Virus record (IMG/VR): IMGVR_UViG_2778261202_000006
Coordinates: 1 to 41,660 of that record
Strand: one strand, 5' to 3'
Source of the DNA: a virus
Taxonomy: Duplodnaviria > Heunggongvirae > Uroviricota > Caudoviricetes
DNA: 41,660 bases
In this document: positions 2,459 to 25,050 of the stretch, piece by piece
How the letters are laid out: each line of letters starts with the position of its first letter
How positions within the stretch are numbered: position 1 is the first letter of the stretch
The notes under the pieces: model-generated
Database searches by the model: none
What the model was told of the DNA's origin: nothing
Seen by the model: the letters and a program-made list of their open reading frames with translations, nothing else
Made by a program: the position numbers and the translations under genes

Positions 2459-4321
2459 TCAAAAATCATTTCCCTCCCATGAGCATGCTGTTATCGAACA
2501 CGATAAGAACTTAAAAAAATAAGCGCTGGTTGTTGTTGGTGCTATTTTTAGTCCCAAAGCTATATTTTTAGCTGTTTCTAAACAAACTGATATTCCAGAA
2601 TTGTTATTTAGCGTATAAGAACGCATGGGTGTTAATGTGTAATAATCATCAGTTGTATAGAATATTTCCACAGTAGTGCTTGAGTCAGTGGCATGATCTC
2701 TATACCCAATTGAAATGGCAATACTATTCATTGTTTCTATATCAAGTGCAGCATTCCCACCACTATTTCTGAATGCCAGCCCTGAATCTGAGAATGCTTG
2801 ATGCCTTTCATCTGTTGGTGTTCCGGTATTCAATACCGCCCATGGCCTCACATCATCTGATGTATATGTCTGATTCAGATTCCTGATAAGTCCGCCGACA
2901 CCAAGTCCTGGCCCCCACAGATAGTATTTGTACTGATAAGATTCTTGCTCAAAAATATTATTGAAAACTCTTGCTTGTTTATAGAAATCATTATCTGTAA
3001 TTATATCAAGGTGCGTTGGATCTGCTACTGATGACTCCCAAGAAAAACTTGCATACGATCCATCACCAAAGCGGAAAAAACTTTTAGAAAATGAAATTTG
3101 CTTTTCTTTATTCGAAAAAACATCTCCAGTAAAAAGACCAACAGCAGGAATCAGCTTTGCATGTGAGGATTTATACTTTAACTCACCAAAAGAAATAATA
3201 GCATTCTTTTTATTGTCAACATCAGATACTGTCCCAATGTAGTAATAATCGACAAAAATAATATCATAATGTTTTGAGATGGTATCATTACCATATCCCC
3301 AATCGCCGTTATCAGCAATACAAAGTGACTTCCCTGTAACAGCTCTCCATGCATTGATTCTGGCATCTTGTTCCGCAACTGAAACCCCCTGATGCTGGGG
3401 TTCATCAAATAAATAATAACCTATTACACAGTCCCTTCTTCCTAAAGACACAATATCAGGTGGTGGCGTATCATTAGGGCTATTGATTATGACATTAATT
3501 CCAACAGCTTCAGCAGCATTGCATGCTTTCTCAAATGTTCCACCATCCGTAAAATTGTATCCATAATGAATAATCGTATTGAAACCAGCGGTCTTAAGCT
3601 GAAGCATATCACATATATCGAAAACACCATGAACCCATGTAGCCTTCATTTTTGAATGATTCACAGGAGTGTAACTATCAAGATTACACGGGACTGAAGG
3701 CCTACGGGTATAAGTAATGGTACTCTTCCCTTCTATCTTGGCACCATTAGGCCAGTCGAAGCGAGACAGAGTTATATTACCGCTAATATAAGCCTTTCCT
3801 GTTCGTTTAATTGCCTCAAGTATCGACTGTTTTGCATCAATGCCGGGGTTTGAATAATCATATCCAAAAAGGGCTATATCAGATTCATTATAAATCTGAT
3901 TATCAATATTTTCTTGTACTGTTTTACCATTACTTGAGCCAATAAGTGATGCCCCTGACGAAGTGGAAATCTCTTGTCTTAACTGATCTGGATCGTACTT
4001 CAATACATTAGGAAAATTGAACTGCAGAGAACCATACGCATCATAAACAGCCATAGAATGGCCTTGCACAGTTACGAATTTGGCAATCTGTCCGTTATAT
4101 ACAGGGTAACCAGCGGCGTTAATGATGATTGGTTGCGAAACAGGAACGTGAGATCCATCTTCGTTCTCTACATAAACCTGAATCTGGTTTTCAGGATTTA
4201 CAGGGTCAGTGTCAATTTTACCAATATAAATTTTGCCATTGGCTACGGCTTTAAAAGAACGAGCCATAGTGAAGAGTTGCGAAGGCATGCTTACCACAAC
4301 ATTTGCGGTGATATCTGACAT
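2459..4321 (-). CDS. gp9: Tailspike protein (P22 gp9-type N-terminal head-binding domain, divergent receptor-binding/enzymatic domain)
   Basis: From internal ATG at 4321 the protein begins [43 protein letters not shown], matching the P22 tailspike N-terminus; GGAG SD 9 nt upstream; six-frame ORF extends 16 codons further upstream to 4369. Confidence 0.9.
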
Positions 4322-4409: not shown

Positions 4410-4709
4410 ATGCCATTCCACCCAACTGGTGAGGCATCAAGGATGTACAGCAAATACGACGAGGCGCAGTTTCACTTGATACTTCCGCATGAACTCCACG
4501 CGAAAATTAAGCAGCGTGCGAAGATGAATAACAGATCGCTGAACTCAGAGATAATTGCAGCGATTGAAGAATCGTTGACTAAACAAAGCTCTGCATCCGT
4601 TTACATTGACGATGCAGAGCGTATGGCAGAACAACAATCTGATATGGTTAAGAAAATGGTTTTTGAAACGCTTAAGACCATGTATAGCAATAATAAAAAG
4701 GAAACATAG
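4410..4709 (+). CDS. mnt: Mnt-like ribbon-helix-helix repressor
   Basis: Similarity to P22 Mnt along its length (..NNRSLNSEIIAAIEESL.. and ..DDAERMAEQQSDMVKKMVFETLK..); alternative start at ATG 4443 would give a protein closer to Mnt length; divergent from tailspike. Confidence 0.75.
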   Translation: MPFHPTGEASRMYSKYDEAQFHLILPHELHAKIKQRAKMNNRSLNSEIIAAIEESLTKQSSASVYIDDAERMAEQQSDMVKKMVFETLKTMYSNNKKET

Positions 4710-4779
4710 AAATCTAGTTTCCGGATAAAATGGCATTGCCTTCATGATATCCTGTGAAAAACTAAGGAGAGTTAACCAT

Positions 4780-5265
4780 ATGAAAAAATCACTGTTAATT
4801 ATCCCGCTTCTGCTGGTTGGATGCGCAAAAGTAAGTGACTATCAAGCAAGTTGCGAACAACGCTATCAAAAGCTTAGCGATATGGCTAATTGCCTTGATG
4901 CCAGTGTGAAGAACGACTCACGCATGGCATCAGCACCAACACCTAAGCTGTATGTCCTTGCTGCAAAGATGCTCGGGCAAGGTGTCGATGAAGGCAAGAT
5001 AAGTGACGCACAGGCAAGACTTGAGCTTCAGAATCTTTATGTTCAATTACAAAGCCAAGAACAAGCCCAACAAATAGCACAAAGCCAAGCATTCCAGCAG
5101 GCTTTATTGAATTATCAGGCTGTAAACACAATGCAAGCGATCGAGCAAAAAGCGCGCCAGCCTGTTATAACTCAACCTTACCCAACACGCGTTGACACAT
5201 ATACAAACTGCAATTCAGGGTTTGGAAATACAGTCACATGCAACAGTAGCAGTAACATAAGATAA
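4780..5265 (+). CDS. Lipoprotein, Gln-rich, function unknown (candidate superinfection-exclusion or lysogenic-conversion factor)
   Basis: Start at ATG 4780 preceded by strong SD AAGGAGAG; signal peptide MKKSLLIIPLLLVGC with lipobox LVGC and Ala at +2; co-directional directly downstream of mnt. Confidence 0.65.
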   Translation: MKKSLLIIPLLLVGCAKVSDYQASCEQRYQKLSDMANCLDASVKNDSRMASAPTPKLYVLAAKMLGQGVDEGKISDAQARLELQNLYVQLQSQEQAQQIAQSQAFQQALLNYQAVNTMQAIEQKARQPVITQPYPTRVDTYTNCNSGFGNTVTCNSSSNIR

Positions 5266-5355
5266 CAATCAGCAAAGGTATTGCCTATGCAGAGTGGTAC
5301 GATAAACCTCGCGTTCTACATATTTGGTTTTTGCACGTTCCTGGTGTTTGAAAAG

Positions 5356-20397: not shown

Positions 20398-20640
20398 TCA
20401 TGCTCCGGTAGTGAACAGGTCTAACGCTTCCTTCGATTTACGCACCGCTTCGATAGTGCGGGTCGTGATATCTGAGTTAGCGCCACCTGACTGGAAGTGA
20501 ATTTTGAATAGCTCAAGCTTCAGCTCGTCAGTGCCAATGAATTGAAATGCTTCTTCTGCGGCTGCGTTCTGGTTCATGACCAGTTTGTAAATCTCTAACT
20601 GGAATTTCTGTTCTTCAGTCATGGGAATAATCTCTGCCAT
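20398..20640 (-). CDS. Hypothetical protein (80 aa) upstream of terminase
   Basis: ATG with GGAG SD; compact ORF in late operon. Confidence 0.5.
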   Translation of the reverse strand: MAEIIPMTEEQKFQLEIYKLVMNQNAAAEEAFQFIGTDELKLELFKIHFQSGGANSDITTRTIEAVRKSKEALDLFTTGA

Positions 20641-20705
20641 TGTTGGCTCCAGTCGTTGGGTTAAGCCATTAAGGTGAAAACTCGCGAATTCTCATTTTGA
20701 TGGCA

Positions 20706-20732
20706 ATAAAAAAGGCCGCCTAAGCGACCTTC
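20706..20732 (-). terminator. Intrinsic terminator, copy A of shared cassette 3' element
   Basis: Minus-sense AGGTCGCTTAGGCGGCCT hairpin (one G-U pair) followed by TTTTTTATT; begins 3 nt after stop of 20735..21040. Confidence 0.65.
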
Positions 20733-20734
20733 CA

Positions 20735-21040
20735 TTAAAATATTCTTTTCTGCTGAGATTGCTCAGCCCATCCAGGCTTATTGAATGGGTGGCATACATT
20801 TCCTTGTGCGTTAGATAATGCAGCCGAGTTAGCTTCTTTCCACTGTTCTTCTGTTGATTTAACGCTGTTATTTATATAAACCATGCCATCCCCAGACATC
20901 TCTTCTGCATACTCTATCGCTTCTTTCTTCCTGTCAGAAGAGAAACGCTTAGAATTACCGGCACTCAAAAACCCTGAAATTTCGTATGCGATCCATTCCT
21001 TGGTTTCTGCATTAAATAGCAACTGCCAATCTTTACACAT
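20735..21040 (-). CDS. Hypothetical cargo protein A (101 aa)
   Basis: ATG preceded by GACGAGGTTGAT context shared with cargo B; flanked by shared 5' element and shared terminator. Confidence 0.55.
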   Translation of the reverse strand: MCKDWQLLFNAETKEWIAYEISGFLSAGNSKRFSSDRKKEAIEYAEEMSGDGMVYINNSVKSTEEQWKEANSAALSNAQGNVCHPFNKPGWAEQSQQKRIF

Positions 21041-21121
21041 ATCAACCTCGTCTAGTTGTTCGTCATAGATTCAGTGGCTGGCGGTGACGATTCCGCTTTT
21101 CGGGAGCTACCCTAGCCACTG
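21041..21121 (-). promoter_or_regulatory. Conserved structured 5' element, copy A (three-stem fold upstream of cargo A)
   Basis: Outer stem CAGTGGCT/AGCCACTG (21072-21079 with 21114-21121), inner stem GCGG/CCGC around loop TGACGATT, third small hairpin; shares architecture and covarying stems with copy at 23975..24058. Confidence 0.55.
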
Positions 21122-21259
21122 TTTTATTCTATCCGATGTCTTTCCATCAGTCCGCCACCACAAAGAATCTTTTTTGCCATAAGGCAGGAGGTTCATCTTT
21201 CAGTGGCTGCCAGTGTTATTTCCCCACTTTCTGGCTTGGGTTGTTTCGCTGTACTACCG

Positions 21260-21802
21260 TTAATTGGTGAGTCCGGGGATTACGGTTTGCCCGTGCTGTT
21301 CAAGACGTTCAATTCTCGCCAGTAGCTGAGGCTTCTTAATTTTTCCCCAGCGATTGAGCAGGCGGCCTGACATGCTGGCAACATCCTTCTCTTTCATGTA
21401 CTCCAGCATTACGGCATTTCTCTCTTCTTCAAATTGACGATGACCAACCTGAAGCATGGCGTACATCCAGTTGAATGCGTTGATGTAAGCAATTTTGATA
21501 CGCATTGCTTCTTTTTTGGTGTAGGACATAACCAAAAGCATCAACCCATCCTTGCGGAGACGGTAGAATTTTTGCGGCTTACCATTCTGTAACTCATTGT
21601 TTTTATAGCAAAGCTCAAAGTTGAGCTTTGTATCAAACTCAGGAGGGCAAGCTTCTATGGTTCGTTCAATGTCACGAACCACGTTCTTCGGCAGCTTTCC
21701 AAATGCTTTTGCCACCATAAAAGAATCTGTAACCGGATCGTTGTTTGCTACAAAAATTAGGTCTCTGAAATCTATATCGTTAACAACGGTTGGGTAGTTC
21801 AT
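21260..21802 (-). CDS. rha: Rha-family phage regulatory protein (antirepressor-like)
   Basis: From ATG 21802: ..FMVAKAFGKLPKNVVRDIER...KFYRLRKDGLMLLVMSYTKKEAMRIKIAYINAFNWM.. resembles Phage_pRha family; six-frame ORF extends further upstream to 22048. Confidence 0.7.
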   Translation of the reverse strand: MNYPTVVNDIDFRDLIFVANNDPVTDSFMVAKAFGKLPKNVVRDIERTIEACPPEFDTKLNFELCYKNNELQNGKPQKFYRLRKDGLMLLVMSYTKKEAMRIKIAYINAFNWMYAMLQVGHRQFEEERNAVMLEYMKEKDVASMSGRLLNRWGKIKKPQLLARIERLEQHGQTVIPGLTN

Positions 21803-21947
21803 TGCGTCTTTACCTTTTAGAAAGATGAGCCTGTTCGCACAGAAAAGCCGTCCCCGAGATGGTCGCCACCATATACGGCAATTCTCAGGCTCAGCTTTCT
21901 GAAAGACTCGGGGTTTATATGCGCTGCGATGCGCGTTTACTGAGGAC

Positions 21948-21975
21948 ACAAAAAAGCCCCGCGAATGCGAGGCTA
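21948..21975 (-). terminator. Intrinsic terminator downstream of Rz
   Basis: Minus-sense GCCUCGC-AUUC-GCGGGGC hairpin followed by UUUUUU. Confidence 0.55.
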
Positions 21976-22147
21976 AATCCTGGTATTTGTAATGACTGGC
22001 TCTTATCTCAACGCAGCCCCTTACCGCGCGCAAAATGCTCAATATCAAGCATCAGCAATGAGATGTTTAATCTGGATTCACTCCAGAAGTGAGCACCACC
22101 CTGTCTACAGAGCCAGATGTGAAGGATGATGAGTAAAATTATCGCTA

Positions 22148-22615
22148 TCATCGAAGGCATTGCGTCCTGATGTATTCCTGAAGCGTTCTCAGTGCTGTTT
22201 GGTCGCGGATAATTCCGTCCCGGATACCGAGAACGTTTCGTCCAGCAACTGGAGAGAGTTCGACGGTGGAATCATTGCCCATGCCGGAGGCGCTGGAGGT
22301 TTCGGCTGAGGATGGCATAGGGCATTTTCCTTTGACGAGCACCCTACCACCATTATCAAGCTTGCGCCGAAGAGCATCATTTTCAGCTTTCGCATCAGCT
22401 AACTCCTTCGTGTATTTAGCATCGAGTGCATCAGCAGTACGCTGGCGCTGCTGCATGTCAGTAATGGTGGTAGTCGCCTGCTTCAGCTCACTGACTTTTT
22501 TATCGCGCTGCTCTTTGTAGGCGATTGCGTTATCACGGTAATGATTAACAGCCCATGACAGGCAGACGATGATGCAGATAATCAGAGCGGAGATAATCGC
22601 GGTGACTCTGCTCAT
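22148..22615 (-). CDS. Rz: Spanin, inner-membrane subunit (Rz)
   Basis: N-terminal half matches lambda Rz ([31 protein letters not shown]..), C-terminal half divergent. Confidence 0.85.
22189..22395 (-). CDS. Rz1: Spanin, outer-membrane lipoprotein subunit (Rz1), embedded in Rz in another frame
   Basis: Embedded ORF with signal/lipobox ..[16 protein letters not shown] and proline-rich [11 protein letters not shown] as in lambda Rz1. Confidence 0.7.
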
Positions 22616-23088
22616 ACCTCAATCTCTCTGACCGCTCCGCCAGCCTCTTTGAATTTTGCAATCAGGCTGTCAGCCTTATGCTCGAACTGGCCATAACCAG
22701 CACCCGGCAGTGAAGCCCAGATATTGCTGCAACGGTCGATTGCCTGACGGATATCACCGCGATCAATCATCGGTAAAGCGCCACGCTCTTTAATCTGCTG
22801 CAATGCCACAGCGTCCTGGCTTTTCGGAGAGAAGTCTTTCAGGCCAAGCTGCTTACGATAGGCATCCCACCAACGGGAAAGAAGCTGGTAACGTCCGGCT
22901 GCTGTTGATTTGAGTTTTGGGTTTAGCGTGACAAGTTTGCGAGGGTGATCGGAGTAATCAGTGAATAGCTCTCCGCCAACAATGACGTCATAACCATGAT
23001 TTCTGGTTTTTTGACGTCCGTTATCAGTTCCCTCTGACCACGCCAGCATATCGAGGAACGCCTTACGTTGATTATTGATTTCCACCAT
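22612..23088 (-). CDS. R: Endolysin (lambda R-type lytic transglycosylase)
   Basis: 158 aa, near-identical by recall to lambda R ([49 protein letters not shown]..). Confidence 0.95.
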
Positions 23089-23395
23089 CTTCTACTCCGG
23101 CTTTTTTAGCAGCGAAGCGTTTGATAAGCGAACCAATCGAGTCAGTACCGATGTAGCCGATGAACACGCTCGTTATATAAGCGAGATTGCTACTTAGTCC
23201 GGCGAAGTCGAGAAGGTCACGAATGAACCAGGCGATAATGGCGCACATCGTTGCGTCGATTACTGTTTTTGTAAACGCACCGCCATTATATCTGCCGCGA
23301 AGGTACGCCATTGCAAACGCAAGGATTGCCCCGATGCCTTGTTCCTTTGCCGCGAGAATGGCGGCTAACAGGTCATGTTTTTCTGGCATCTTCAT
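23072..23395 (-). CDS. S: Holin/antiholin (lambda S-type, dual-start MKMPEKH)
   Basis: 107 aa, matches lambda S including Met1-Lys2-Met3 dual-start motif. Confidence 0.95.
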
Positions 23396-23684
23396 GTCTT
23401 ACCCCCAATAAGGGGATTTGCTCTATTTAATTAGGAATAAGGTCGATTACTGATAGAACAAATCCAGGCTACTGTGTTTAGTAATCAGATTTGTTCGTGA
23501 CCGATATGCACGGGCAAAACGGCATCAGGTTGTTAGCGCAACCTCTTGCCACCCGCTTTCACGAAGCCAGCCATTGAGCTGGTTTTCTTTTATGCAAAGC
23601 ACACCGCACCGTAGCCACAGCGGATAAGGTGAGGGTTTTGTCTGTCTGGTTTTTGGTGGAATGCGCTTTCAGAAATGTCGTGCA

Positions 23685-23712
23685 ATAAAAAGGCCGCCTT
23701 AGCGACCTTTAT
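23685..23712 (-). terminator. Intrinsic terminator, copy B of shared cassette 3' element (overlaps stop codon of cargo B)
   Basis: Minus-sense AGGTCGCTAAGGCGGCCT hairpin followed by TTTTTATT; near-identical to 20706..20732. Confidence 0.65.
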
Positions 23713-23974
23713 TTGAATTTGGATTCCCTCTCCATTTCCATTCATCTTTATGAGCTGCAACGCCAAGTTCGGTAAGAGAGTAGTATTGCATTAAGCTATG
23801 ATATCCGCCGTTATTATCACGGTCGAAAAAGCCAACAGCAAGATATCCATGACGGACCAATGAGTCAACCATGAGAATCTCATCATCCTGTACGTCAGAA
23901 TCAGCAATTCTCTCCTGCTTAAATTGAAGAATTCGATTGAGAAAATGCAGTTCTCTTCCAGAGATTTTTTCCAT
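23699..23974 (-). CDS. Hypothetical cargo protein B (91 aa) in the Q-S interval
   Basis: ATG 23974 preceded by GACGAGGTTGTT context shared with cargo A; six-frame ORF extends upstream to 24055 through the conserved leader, so the shorter start is preferred. Confidence 0.55.
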   Translation of the reverse strand: MEKISGRELHFLNRILQFKQERIADSDVQDDEILMVDSLVRHGYLAVGFFDRDNNGGYHSLMQYYSLTELGVAAHKDEWKWRGNPNSNKGR

Positions 23975-24058
23975 AACAACCTCGTCTAGTTGCTCGTCTA
24001 TGTTCGCTATGGCAGGCAGTGACGATACTGCTTTTCGACTGGCCGGTCTAGCCATAGC
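23975..24058 (-). promoter_or_regulatory. Conserved structured 5' element, copy B
   Basis: Outer stem GCTATGGC/GCCATAGC (24006-24013 with 24051-24058), inner stem GCAG/CTGC around loop TGACGATA, third hairpin GACTGG/CCGGTC; compensatory changes relative to copy A. Confidence 0.55.
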
Positions 24059-24284
24059 TGAAGGGGACCAGTTACGTTTATCAGGCGTCTTTCGACCGAT
24101 TTCCTGAGGTAGCAGGTTAGGATGTGGTGGCTACTACGTGAGACTTAGCTCAGCGCCCTACAGGAAGGTTCTTTGGCTGAGTACCCATTACAAACCCTGT
24201 TTTAACCACATGGGGAAGCCAACTCTCCCAAATACTTAGTGTCGAGCCTAAACAGGGCATGAAAGAAGGCTTTCCGTTGTGCTT

Positions 24285-24322
24285 AAAACGCAAAAAGCCC
24301 CGAGCTATTAACTCAGGGCTTT
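24285..24322 (-). terminator. tR'-like intrinsic terminator shortly downstream of pR'
   Basis: Minus-sense AGCCCUGAG-uuaau-CUCGGGGCU hairpin followed by UUUUUGCGUUUU. Confidence 0.6.
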
Positions 24323-24341
24323 ATTTAACGAGTGCATTTAT

Positions 24342-24384
24342 CCATCGTTGAGTCAAATTTACCCAATTTTATTCAATAAGTCAA
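24342..24384 (-). promoter_or_regulatory. Late promoter pR' with qut region (lambda-type)
   Basis: Minus-sense TTGACTTATTGAATAAAATTGGGTAAATTTGACTCAACGATGG matches the lambda pR' region as recalled (-35 TTGACT, -10 TAAATT); immediately downstream of Q. Confidence 0.75.
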
Positions 24385-24426
24385 TATCATGCCGTTAATA
24401 TGTTGCCATCCGTGGCAATCATGCTG

Positions 24427-25050
24427 CTAACGTGTGACCGCATTCAAAATGCTGTCTGCGATTGACTCTTCCTTGTGGCATTGCACCACCAGAGCGTCAT
24501 ACAGAGGCTTAACAGTGCGTGACCAGGTGGGTTGAGTAAGGTTTGGGATTAGCATCGTCACAGCGCGATATGCGGCGCTTGCTGGCATTCTTGAATAGCC
24601 GACACCTTTGCATCTTCCGCACTCTTTCTCGACAACTCTCCCCCACTGCTCTGTTTTTGCTATATCAACCGCACGGCCTGTACCGTGGCAATCTCTGCAT
24701 CTTGCGCCCGGCGTCGCGGCACTACGGCAATAATCCGCATAAGCGAATGTTGCGAGCACTTGCAGTACCTTTGCCTTAGTATTTCCTTCAAGCTTTGCAA
24801 CGCCACGGTATTTCCCCGATACCTTGTGTGCAAATTGCATCAGATAGTTGATAGCCTTTTGTTTGTCGTTCTGGCTGAGTTCGTGCTTACCACAGAATGC
24901 AGCCATTCCGAATCCGGCTTGTGATTGCGCCATCCCCATAGCAGCCATCACATCAGTACCGGAAAGAGAGTCAGAAGCCGTGGCCCGTGGTGAGTCGCTC
25001 ATCATCGGGCTTTTTGGCGAATGAAATTTAGCTACGCTTTCGAGTCTCAT
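24427..25050 (-). CDS. Q: Late-gene antiterminator Q (lambda-type)
   Basis: 207 aa, matches lambda Q by recall (MRLESVAKFHSPKSPMMSDSPRATASDSLSGTDVMAAMGMAQSQAGF..). Confidence 0.95.
   Translation of the reverse strand: MRLESVAKFHSPKSPMMSDSPRATASDSLSGTDVMAAMGMAQSQAGFGMAAFCGKHELSQNDKQKAINYLMQFAHKVSGKYRGVAKLEGNTKAKVLQVLATFAYADYCRSAATPGARCRDCHGTGRAVDIAKTEQWGRVVEKECGRCKGVGYSRMPASAAYRAVTMLIPNLTQPTWSRTVKPLYDALVVQCHKEESIADSILNAVTR

Follow-up and report, generated by a model that had tools for sequence, protein, structure and literature searches.

Why should two unrelated genes in the late region of one prophage be encoded behind the same kind of structured element and in front of the same terminator? 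The question is raised by IMG/VR record IMGVR_UViG_2778261202_000006, analysed here as one stretch of 41,660 nucleotides (hereafter the window), which is a P22-like (Lederbergvirus) prophage with Sf101, CUS-3 and HK620 as its closest matches. Each of two open reading frames (ORFs), cargo ORF 1 and cargo ORF 2, has an element of ~85 nt on its 5′ side and, on its 3′ side, the hairpin AAGGUCGC-U(U/A)AG-GCGGCCUU with a U-tract; all genes concerned here lie on the minus strand. A preliminary description of the locus had proposed that the 5′ element was undescribed, that it was under selection for its structure, and that it served as an RNA leader, a regulatory site or a recombination target. The element in fact belongs to a known RNA family, int-alpA, and sequence comparison strongly supports it as a real structured leader. 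Its most informative feature, absent from the preliminary description, is that one hairpin loop has two complementary sites further downstream, the second of them at the Shine-Dalgarno sequence. We consider it fairly probable that the int-alpA leader exerts cis-acting translational control over the ORF that follows, by means of two alternative pairings of this loop.

Identity and fold of the 5′ element

A scan of the whole window against Rfam at curated thresholds gave two hits only, both to RF02996 (int-alpA RNA): copy 2, preceding cargo ORF 2, at 24058..23992 (43.7 bits, E=6e-6), and copy 1, preceding cargo ORF 1, at 21122..21060 (42.0 bits, E=1.7e-5), with E-values calculated over the whole window. 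Both hits span the full model (positions 1-71), and since both exceed the gathering threshold of 35.8 bits, the element supposed to be undescribed is one already described. A sample of the copies from other phages discussed below also scored above the threshold. When window positions 20600-24500 were searched at E<=10, no family besides int-alpA was recovered, C4, isrK and the riboswitch families all being without a match. Rfam classes RF02996 as 'Gene; sRNA' (small RNA), and we take it to be the candidate sRNA motif of that name from Weinberg et al. 2017, '224 candidate structured RNAs'. No study of int-alpA function was found in the literature, where the sole other full-text mention was in a presence/absence table of a survey of outer-membrane-vesicle sRNAs; the main text of the 2017 discovery paper (PMC5737381) does not discuss the motif.

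The int-alpA leader is built on an 8-bp helix, P1, closing a three-way junction of two hairpins, P2 and P3, with conserved junction nucleotides (the strands UA, GAAAA and CA in copy 1), and RNAfold returns this junction plus a further hairpin, P4, for both window copies (Table 1). The two copies differ in sequence and preserve pairing, the outer stem being ACAGUGGC/GCCACUG in one copy versus GCUAUGGC/GCCAUAGC in the other, the inner stem GCGG/CCGC versus GCAGU/ACUGC, and the variable third hairpin GGG..CCC versus GAC..GUC, while the loop (A/U)AUCGUCA, conserved in both, is that of the P3 hairpin. All of the stems listed in the preliminary description were correct, and the selection on structure that it suggested is borne out by the RF02996 hits and by covariation. 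For the latter, 31 diverse copies were aligned with MAFFT and their three helices compared with 500 shuffles and with slid controls. Cells were paired in 87.1% of cases versus 62.0% in the shuffles, 121 cells versus 32.6 were changed on both sides, and 12 of the 16 helix pairs showed changes on both sides; the covariation score of 0.622 (shuffled, 0.134; slid controls, 0.08-0.13) was reached by 0 of the 500 shuffles. Owing to its G-U pairs, the fold is confined to the sense strand. The junction nucleotides UAG, CGAAA and G..CC vary little or not at all among copies from Vibrio, Pseudomonas, enteric and metagenomic sources, and the Rfam consensus has the matching and equally conserved CUAG / CGAAAAGC / GCCUG, which is common to the window copies.

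Other identities were considered and rejected. The junction has CGAAA but no hammerhead CUGANGA, and Rfam yields only int-alpA at E<=10, which argues against a ribozyme; ARAGORN finds no tRNA, which leaves no support for a tRNA-like reading; and membership of the C4/CI family was discarded since the C4 covariance model is silent on the window elements at E<=10. As a positive control, the same model gave two C4 hits, of 82 and 74 bits, in another contig of our collection (L134).

Loop complementarity at the ribosome-binding site

Downstream of P1, both window copies carry two short sites complementary to the P3 loop, of which the second, site 2, sits inside ACUAGACGAGGUUG, a sequence identical in both copies, and overlaps the Shine-Dalgarno sequence GAGG. 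The generality of this arrangement was assessed on copies from other phages: 100 non-identical copies were collected from phage contigs, 91 of them, with 60 distinct loops, were parsed cleanly, and loops exchanged between copies served as the control. A perfect loop complement of at least 5 nt was present within the 55-nt tail in 96% of copies (control, 27%), and one of at least 6 nt in 80% (control, 6%), while 68% of copies had two or more loop-complementary sites, versus 3% in the control. Matches of at least 6 nt were found in the site-1 zone in 76% of copies versus 2%, and in the site-2 zone in 30% versus 4%; outside these zones they were at control level, both upstream (1% versus 6%) and in the ORF interior (5% versus 4%). 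Both sites covary with the loop across the 60 different loop sequences: the loop CCUCA goes with the sites UGAGG and GAGGU, UCGUAA with UUACGA and UACGA, UUCGUUAC with GUAACG and UAACG, and ACCUCCAA with UUGGAGG and AUGGAGG. The geometry is fixed: site 1 begins 5-9 nt downstream of P1, site 2 begins 13-15 nt after site 1, and the start codon is mostly found 7-12 nt beyond site 2. The two pairings are nearly isoenergetic (family means, -6.8 and -7.3 kcal/mol). The canonical E. coli island copies, located directly after int, share the layout, with the loop ACCUU/GCCUU followed by AAGGU/AAGGC and then by AAGGU at the ribosome-binding site. The P4 hairpin, whose loop contains site 2 in both window copies, shows compensatory changes (CAAC/GUUG, UUAAC/GUUAA, AUAAC/GUUAU and UACAC/GUGUA).

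A subfamily of three copies (L023, L115 and L122) deserves separate mention. Its loop, ACCUCCAA, resembles the anti-Shine-Dalgarno sequence, and its two sites, UUGGAGG and AUGGAGG, are true Shine-Dalgarno sequences, each of them followed by an in-frame AUG (MNGGHFM...) in a dual-start arrangement.

Table 1. Features of the two cassettes and their surroundings, in the order of transcription (window positions)
Feature	Position	Strand	Description
Q	25050..24427	-	
Late promoter and tR′ terminator	24384-24294	-	
Upstream part of copy 2 insertion	24059..24282	-	Absent from Sf101
Copy 2 three-way junction	24006..24058	-	Rfam 43.7 bits; RNAfold
Copy 2 helices	P1 24058-24051/24013-24006, P2 24048-24037, P3 24031-24016	-	
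Copy 2 P3 loop	24021..24026	-	AUCGUC
Copy 2 site 1	23994..23998	-	GACGA; duplex -7.1 kcal/mol with loop UCGUC
Copy 2 P4 hairpin	23975..23994	-	AGCAACU[AGACGA]GGUUGUU; RNAfold
Copy 2 site 2	23986-23982	-	GACGA; duplex -7.1 kcal/mol
Copy 2 Shine-Dalgarno GAGG	23983-23980	-	
Cargo ORF 2	23699..23974	-	91 aa, orphan protein; stop codon inside terminator loop
Copy 2 terminator	23681..23709	-	AAGGUCGC-UAAG-GCGGCCUU, U-tract, ATTGCA
Possible remnant of an older element's 3′ half	21199..21215	-	CACUGGCAGCCACUGAA; repeat comparison
Copy 1 -10-like hexamer TAGAAT	21126..21131	-	3 nt upstream of P1; cassette-borne, missing from empty site
Copy 1 three-way junction	21072..21122	-	Rfam 42.0 bits; RNAfold minimum-free-energy structure; covariation
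Copy 1 helices	P1 21122-21115/21078-21072, P2 21112-21102, P3 21096-21081	-	
Copy 1 P3 loop	21085..21092	-	AAUCGUCA
Copy 1 site 1	21060..21065	-	UGACGA, 6 bp with P3 loop UCGUCA, 6 nt after P1; duplex -7.8 kcal/mol
Copy 1 P4 hairpin	21043..21058	-	CAACU[AGACGA]GGUUG; RNAfold
Copy 1 site 2	21052-21048	-	GACGA in P4 loop; duplex -7.1 kcal/mol
Copy 1 Shine-Dalgarno GAGG	21049-21046	-	Half in P4 loop, half in P4 stem
Cargo ORF 1	20735..21040	-	101 aa, orphan protein
Copy 1 terminator	20702..20731	-	AAGGUCGC-UUAG-GCGGCCUU, U-tract, ATTGCC

Each unit comprises the leader RNA, a cargo gene and an intrinsic terminator, to which copy 1 adds a -10-like box. In the mechanism that we propose, the P3 loop (UCGUCA) would toggle between two sites of nearly equal strength. 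Pairing with site 1, the decoy, would produce a pseudoknot and leave the ribosome-binding site free, while pairing with site 2 in the P4 loop would produce a kissing complex or pseudoknot in which the Shine-Dalgarno GAGG is locked away. That pairing alters translation, which of the states is on, and what flips the switch are points that we infer from the sequences, and the strong conservation of the junction suggests a bound host factor or ligand. The sign of the control is uncertain, because there are precedents both for repression at the Shine-Dalgarno sequence (c4 and CI) and for activation by a pseudoknot (IncI/IncB repZ/repA).

Several observations weigh against cis-acting control of this kind. 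Site 2 is just 5 nt long in both window copies, and in many copies elsewhere it abuts the Shine-Dalgarno sequence instead of covering it, in which position it could activate rather than repress, by analogy with repZ/repA. As a family-wide feature P4 shows but a modest excess over the control (mean best stem, 4.46 versus 3.93; highest control, 4.22) and was retained as a secondary element. Rfam types int-alpA as a trans-acting sRNA, and a simple antisense scaffold leaves the strong conservation of the junction and of P2 unexplained. As regards the promoter, copy 1 has no -35 match and its TAGAAT was not listed by a sigma-70 scan, and no recognisable promoter was found upstream of P1 in copy 2, which is presumably read from the Q-modified late transcript.

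It is possible, though rather unlikely, that int-alpA is instead a trans-acting antisense or immunity RNA, that is, a short, stable junction RNA that binds either of the two sites on other transcripts sharing its loop sequence. Such an RNA would be released by termination at P1 and a U-run, or by cleavage in the AU-rich linker, and would bring copy-number-dependent repression or cross-talk, as with P1/P7 c4, P4 CI and IsrK; it would be compatible with the cis model. Besides the Rfam typing, it would account for the run of at least four U within 14 nt after P1 in 29 of the 91 copies, the canonical E. coli copies having UUAUUUUU or UCUUUUU at this position, and for the resemblance of many cargos to c4/CI-controlled genes (antirepressors and primase-helicases), and it has precedents in P4 CI and IsrK (PMC4825925). 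Since the window copies share the loop core UCGUC and the site-2 context, cross-regulation between them is physically possible. However, neither window copy has a U-run after P1, every copy has its own matching sites directly downstream, which would be needless for a purely trans-acting RNA, and loop complements are not found upstream of the element, unlike a1/b1 of c4 or seqA of P4. The layout, with matching sites on the same transcript, thus favours a cis-acting leader over a trans-acting sRNA.

Somewhat less likely still is that the leader acts as a self-titrating, addressable RNA switch. On the full-length mRNA, site 1 would mask the P3 loop in cis and the cargo would be translated, whereas junction fragments lacking site 1 would arise by termination or decay, accumulate, and with their unmasked loops silence all transcripts of the cell whose site 2 matches. 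The loop and its sites, variable in sequence (60 variants), would then serve as an immunity or address code, linking cassettes within one phage (the window copies share UCGUC/GACGAGG) and possibly also co-resident phages, or helpers with satellites that carry int-alpA. If this were true, toxic DNA-acting proteins such as homing endonucleases, antirepressors and replication initiators would be dose-buffered against genome copy number.

A riboswitch or protein-responsive aptamer, in which the junction and the pseudoknot between the loop and site 1 would recognise a metabolite or else a protein of host or phage, appears doubtful, and slightly more so than the switch just described. It is best seen as a sub-variant of cis-acting control, binding determining if the loop is available for pairing at the ribosome-binding site. 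The near-invariance of the junction in copies from distant hosts and in the Rfam consensus would suit an aptamer, and near-isoenergetic pairings are what one would expect of a switch. On the other hand, the 41 families of cargo described below have no common metabolic theme, unlike the genes governed by metabolite riboswitches, there is no candidate ligand to propose, and no known riboswitch family matches at E<=10.

Cargo genes, cassettes and their reassortment

Both the element and the cassette organization recur well beyond the window. Comparison of the 100-nt leader with GenBank phages by BLAST gave matches of 72-89% identity in unrelated phages of Salmonella, Enterobacter, Edwardsiella, Pantoea, Klebsiella, Pseudomonas, Shewanella and Vibrio, and at least 120 viral contigs match the core pattern GGCTAGGNTNGNTNCCGAAA, which has 16 specified bases. 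In most of the annotated records fetched the leader match stops 1-6 nt before the annotated start codon; in Tyrion, IME307 and PA-1 the start called here is unannotated or the annotated coding sequence differs. In the parsed copies the junction lies directly 5′ of an ORF, always in the same orientation, and the insertion points vary (terL/portal, head-morphogenesis/protease, tail genes, methylase/ninG). Recurrence of the element with unrelated cargo, which the preliminary description had proposed to check, is borne out by ~100 copies and by the 90 downstream ORFs, which fall into 41 cargo families. According to Pfam and PHROG assignments, these include DUF1376 (22 copies), DUF927/DUF5906 primase-helicase-like proteins (8), HTH_36/DnaD_N replication organisers (7) and KilA-N+P63C proteins (5), with Rha, Bro-N+ANT, PriCT_2+AAA_25, RecD-like helicase and DUF551 at 1-2 copies each, several families of HNH_3/NUMOD4/AP2 and GIY-YIG homing endonucleases, and many small orphan proteins.

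The cargos of the window belong to the orphans. Their two proteins are unrelated, as had been noted before (BLASTP E=0.19), and have 4 (cargo 1) and 9 (cargo 2) homologous clusters among 5.8 billion sequences. Domain searches and structure prediction yielded no domain or fold match, so that no function can be assigned: neither protein matches Pfam or PHROG, the AlphaFold2 (AF2) confidence (predicted local distance difference test, pLDDT) is 67.8 for cargo 1 and 51.9 for cargo 2, and Foldseek found no usable fold match, the best in the Protein Data Bank (PDB) having E=0.95.

Leader 2 is open in frame with cargo 2 (24055-23699), and an in-frame ATG at 24055 extends cargo ORF 2 to 118 aa; in copy 1 an in-frame TGA immediately follows P1. 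Database proteins of 118 and 128 aa that start MAR(P/L)A(S/N)RKAVSS..DEQLDEVVM correspond to the translated RNA leader. Since conservation follows base pairing and not codons, a coding role of the leader was rejected, and the 118-aa extension is probably a recurrent error of start-codon annotation, which would account for the spurious N-terminal extensions (MARPASRKAVSS...) of database proteins.

A -10-like box (at least 5/6 matches to TATAAT) is present at most 15 nt upstream of P1 in 39 of 87 copies, 14 of the boxes being exact TATAAT, and the rate is about ten times that in the 25 positions further upstream. Some viral contigs carry tandem int-alpA elements (L018, ~585 nt apart, and also L026, L050 and L114), each preceding an ORF of its own (156-aa and ~330-aa proteins) and having related but distinct loops, GCCUUG versus ACCUUGA. 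In L134, an integrase-bearing island beside yicC in E. coli 2012EL-2448, an int-alpA, an isrK-like and two C4 RNAs (2993-3058, 4568-4647, 4696-4783 and 5186-5273) lie among Icd-like genes, that is, three regulator families within 2.3 kb.

The late genes of the window follow the order Q, late promoter and tR′, holin, lysozyme, Rz, Rha, hkbM/hkbN and terminase, with copy 2 between Q/tR′ and the holin gene S and copy 1 between Rha and hkbM/terminase, in agreement with the placement given in the preliminary description. Its account of the shared cassette ends holds as well. The window contains the 14-nt start context ACTAGACGAGGTTG at just two places (21056-21043 and 23990-23977), within a 27-nt repeat that spans the start codon and is 93% identical between the copies, and the 23-nt terminator repeat AAAAAGGCCGCCT(A/T)AGCGACCTT is 96% identical. 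A simple terminator scan listed neither cassette terminator (20731-20708, 23709-23687); by direct check, both consist of an 8-bp hairpin (-11.0 kcal/mol) followed by five or six T. The stop codon of cargo 1 lies 11 nt before the terminator hairpin, and that of cargo 2 (UAA, 23701-23699) provides three of the four nucleotides of the terminator loop, with the last codons, GGU CGC, in the 5′ arm. Among 76 complete cargos, 14 have a hairpin and T-run at the 3′ end and the remaining 62 head longer operons; in 9 of the 14, from enteric, Vibrio and Pseudomonas phages, the T-run is followed by ATTGC, and both window copies belong to this subclass (the end of copy 2 reads TTTTTATTGCA). The sequence TTTTTTATTGCC after the hairpin (20709-20702 and 23688-23681) is conserved even where the hairpin sequence differs, being found also in L002, L003, L005, L006, L008, L016, L024, L030 and L136, and the empty site of Sf101, HK620 and CUS-3 likewise contains TTATTGC; the motif may be a preferred crossover point.

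Sf101, HK620 and CUS-3 lack both units, which allowed the junctions to be mapped. The empty site of cassette 1 reads CATCGG|TTATTGCAG in all three, and the insertion, ~21132..20710, runs from ATAGAAT through the leader, the ORF and the hairpin to TTTT. About 130 nt upstream of copy 1, CACUGGCAGCCACUGAA (21215-21199) resembles the P3 3′ strand, P1 3′ strand and linker of int-alpA; it is kept in the three sister phages, all without cassette 1, and may be the scar of an earlier cassette at this site. Cassette 2 is part of a ~0.6 kb insertion (24282..23685) that begins immediately behind tR′; GCACAAC and GCACGAC border it, in place of the single TCACGAC of Sf101. The ~224 nt in front of the leader (24282-24059) gave no fold signal (z=+1.03), no Rfam hit and no tRNA; the Salmonella counterpart of this segment (L137, ~2930-2995) ends in a tRNA-like T-arm, acceptor stem and CCA (GGTTCGACTCCTGAAGGCTTCCACCA). 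In the same Q-S interval HK620 has a different insert of ~0.6 kb (L132, 1710-2320) and CUS-3 has annotated 'boundary sequences' (L133, 2076-2671); the interval is a general hotspot of mosaic exchange.

Leader and cargo have been recombined in several ways. Four different cargos, those of the window, L001, L024 and L044, follow one and the same promoter and leader at the Rha-proximal site. Cassette 1 was found in full once among 5,426 complete E. coli genomes, its leader occurring with other cargo in 47 genomes. PM06121 has cassette 1 at 99.8% identity, and E. coli ET151 has cassette 2 at 100%. In the Q-S interval of a Salmonella prophage, leader 2 (97.7% identical) is fused to cargo 1 (91% identical), the joint being at the start codon, and the terminator is that of the window cassettes; a Sodalis prophage has a leader-1-type element before a homologue of cargo 2. 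Leader, cargo and terminator are thus interchangeable modules, and with the conserved 3′ terminator and the status of both units as insertions they uphold the modular units of the preliminary description.

Exchangeable cargo between constant ends could also point to a DNA-level element, namely a site for recombination or insertion of single-stranded DNA, similar to an integron attC, with the 3′ hairpin and TTTTTTATTGCC as its other end. Single-stranded DNA and RNA motifs are hard to distinguish computationally, as the 2017 discovery paper cautions (PMC5737381), and the status of both units as insertions, the hairpin, T-run and ATTGC common to 9 of the 14 terminator-bearing cassettes of unrelated phages, and the TTATTGC of the empty site could all be read in this way. 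We nevertheless judge this reading very improbable. The window units have no associated recombinase or defined end sequence indicative of dedicated mobility, 62 of 76 copies are without the 3′ terminator module, -10 boxes are in excess immediately upstream of the element, and homologous exchange between conserved flanks is sufficient to explain the swapping of cargo. Action at the RNA level is indicated because the element invariably has the orientation of the ORF and lies right against the ribosome-binding site, because its G-U pairs make the fold strand-specific, and because its loop pairs, and covaries, with sites near the Shine-Dalgarno sequence; nothing points to the dedicated recombination target that had been entertained. 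Plain local duplication or a functionless chance likeness, for which one could cite the short helices and the presence of two copies only in the window, can be dismissed in view of the Rfam E-values of ~1e-5, the at least 120 loci in viral contigs that match the core pattern, the compensatory changes in the helices and the unrelated cargo genes.

One of many computationally discovered bacterial RNA motifs, int-alpA is thereby provided with a concrete, testable hypothesis, to which the two-site switch layout, the promoter association, the cargo spectrum and the demonstrated reassortment of modules are the present contributions. Phages and satellites across Gammaproteobacteria would, in our proposal, use the leader to gate dangerous or timing-sensitive genes, such as homing endonucleases, antirepressors, replication initiators and orphan morons. 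If so, int-alpA would represent a widespread class of phage riboregulator, would bear on the silencing of integrase-adjacent satellite operons, and would offer a compact, reprogrammable part for translational control.

Comparison with known systems

The window copies agree with RF02996 in scoring above threshold and in having the same three-way junction and the same layout of loop, site 1 and site 2, although the structure line of Rfam does not include the pairing between loop and tail. They differ from the canonical copies, which directly follow int, in that they lie in a P22-like late operon and not beside int or alpA, and in that they head single-gene cassettes ending in a conserved terminator, without a U-rich tract after P1.

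The c4 RNA of P1/P7 (RF01695) and the CI RNA of P4 are likewise structured RNAs encoded in the leader of the operon that they control, with loops complementary to sites on the same transcript at or near the first ribosome-binding site, a likeness that is an analogy and no evidence of homology. For c4, the loop complementarity near the first ribosome-binding site was reportedly described by Citron and Schuster in 1990, a study cited in PMC8201110. The controlled genes are of the antirepressor or primase type, as are many int-alpA cargos. In contrast to these systems, both int-alpA target zones are downstream and none is upstream, and the C4 model does not hit the window elements at E<=10. The int-alpA leader would work like c4 and CI, but it is not a member of their family. 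The P4 CI RNA pairs with two sites, seqA and seqC (PMC4825925), and c4, CI and IsrK are analogues of a trans-acting short form (PMC8201110, PMC4825925). IsrK, from the Gifsy-1 prophage (RF01394), is a leader that exists as a short sRNA or as part of a read-through mRNA, the short form pairing with the long one and changing translation of the first cistron (PMC4825925). It differs from int-alpA in its fold and in activating translation, and isrK gave no hit on the window.

In the repZ/repA leaders, as is proposed for the int-alpA leader, a hairpin loop pairs just 5′ of the Shine-Dalgarno sequence, and a competing RNA partner of that loop decides the pairing. The activator pseudoknots of IncI-alpha and IncB plasmids are said to have been worked out by Asano and Mizobuchi and by Praszkier and Pittard. 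The plasmid pseudoknot, however, turns translation on, the competitor there is a separate antisense RNA, and no Rfam match to those leaders was found in the window region.

Integron cassettes differ in that the structured element considered here is at the 5′ end and pairs with ribosome-binding-site sequences, instead of being a 3′ attC, and in that the units are single insertions at different loci without an integron integrase. A closer parallel is found in the 'morons' of lambdoid phages, a concept that reportedly goes back to Hendrix and colleagues. Like morons, each unit is a single extra gene between conserved late genes, absent from the sister phages Sf101, HK620 and CUS-3 and equipped with its own intrinsic terminator and, in copy 1, with a candidate promoter. 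Unlike morons as defined, which need not share a leader, the units described here have a conserved structured leader and a terminator that frame interchangeable cargo.

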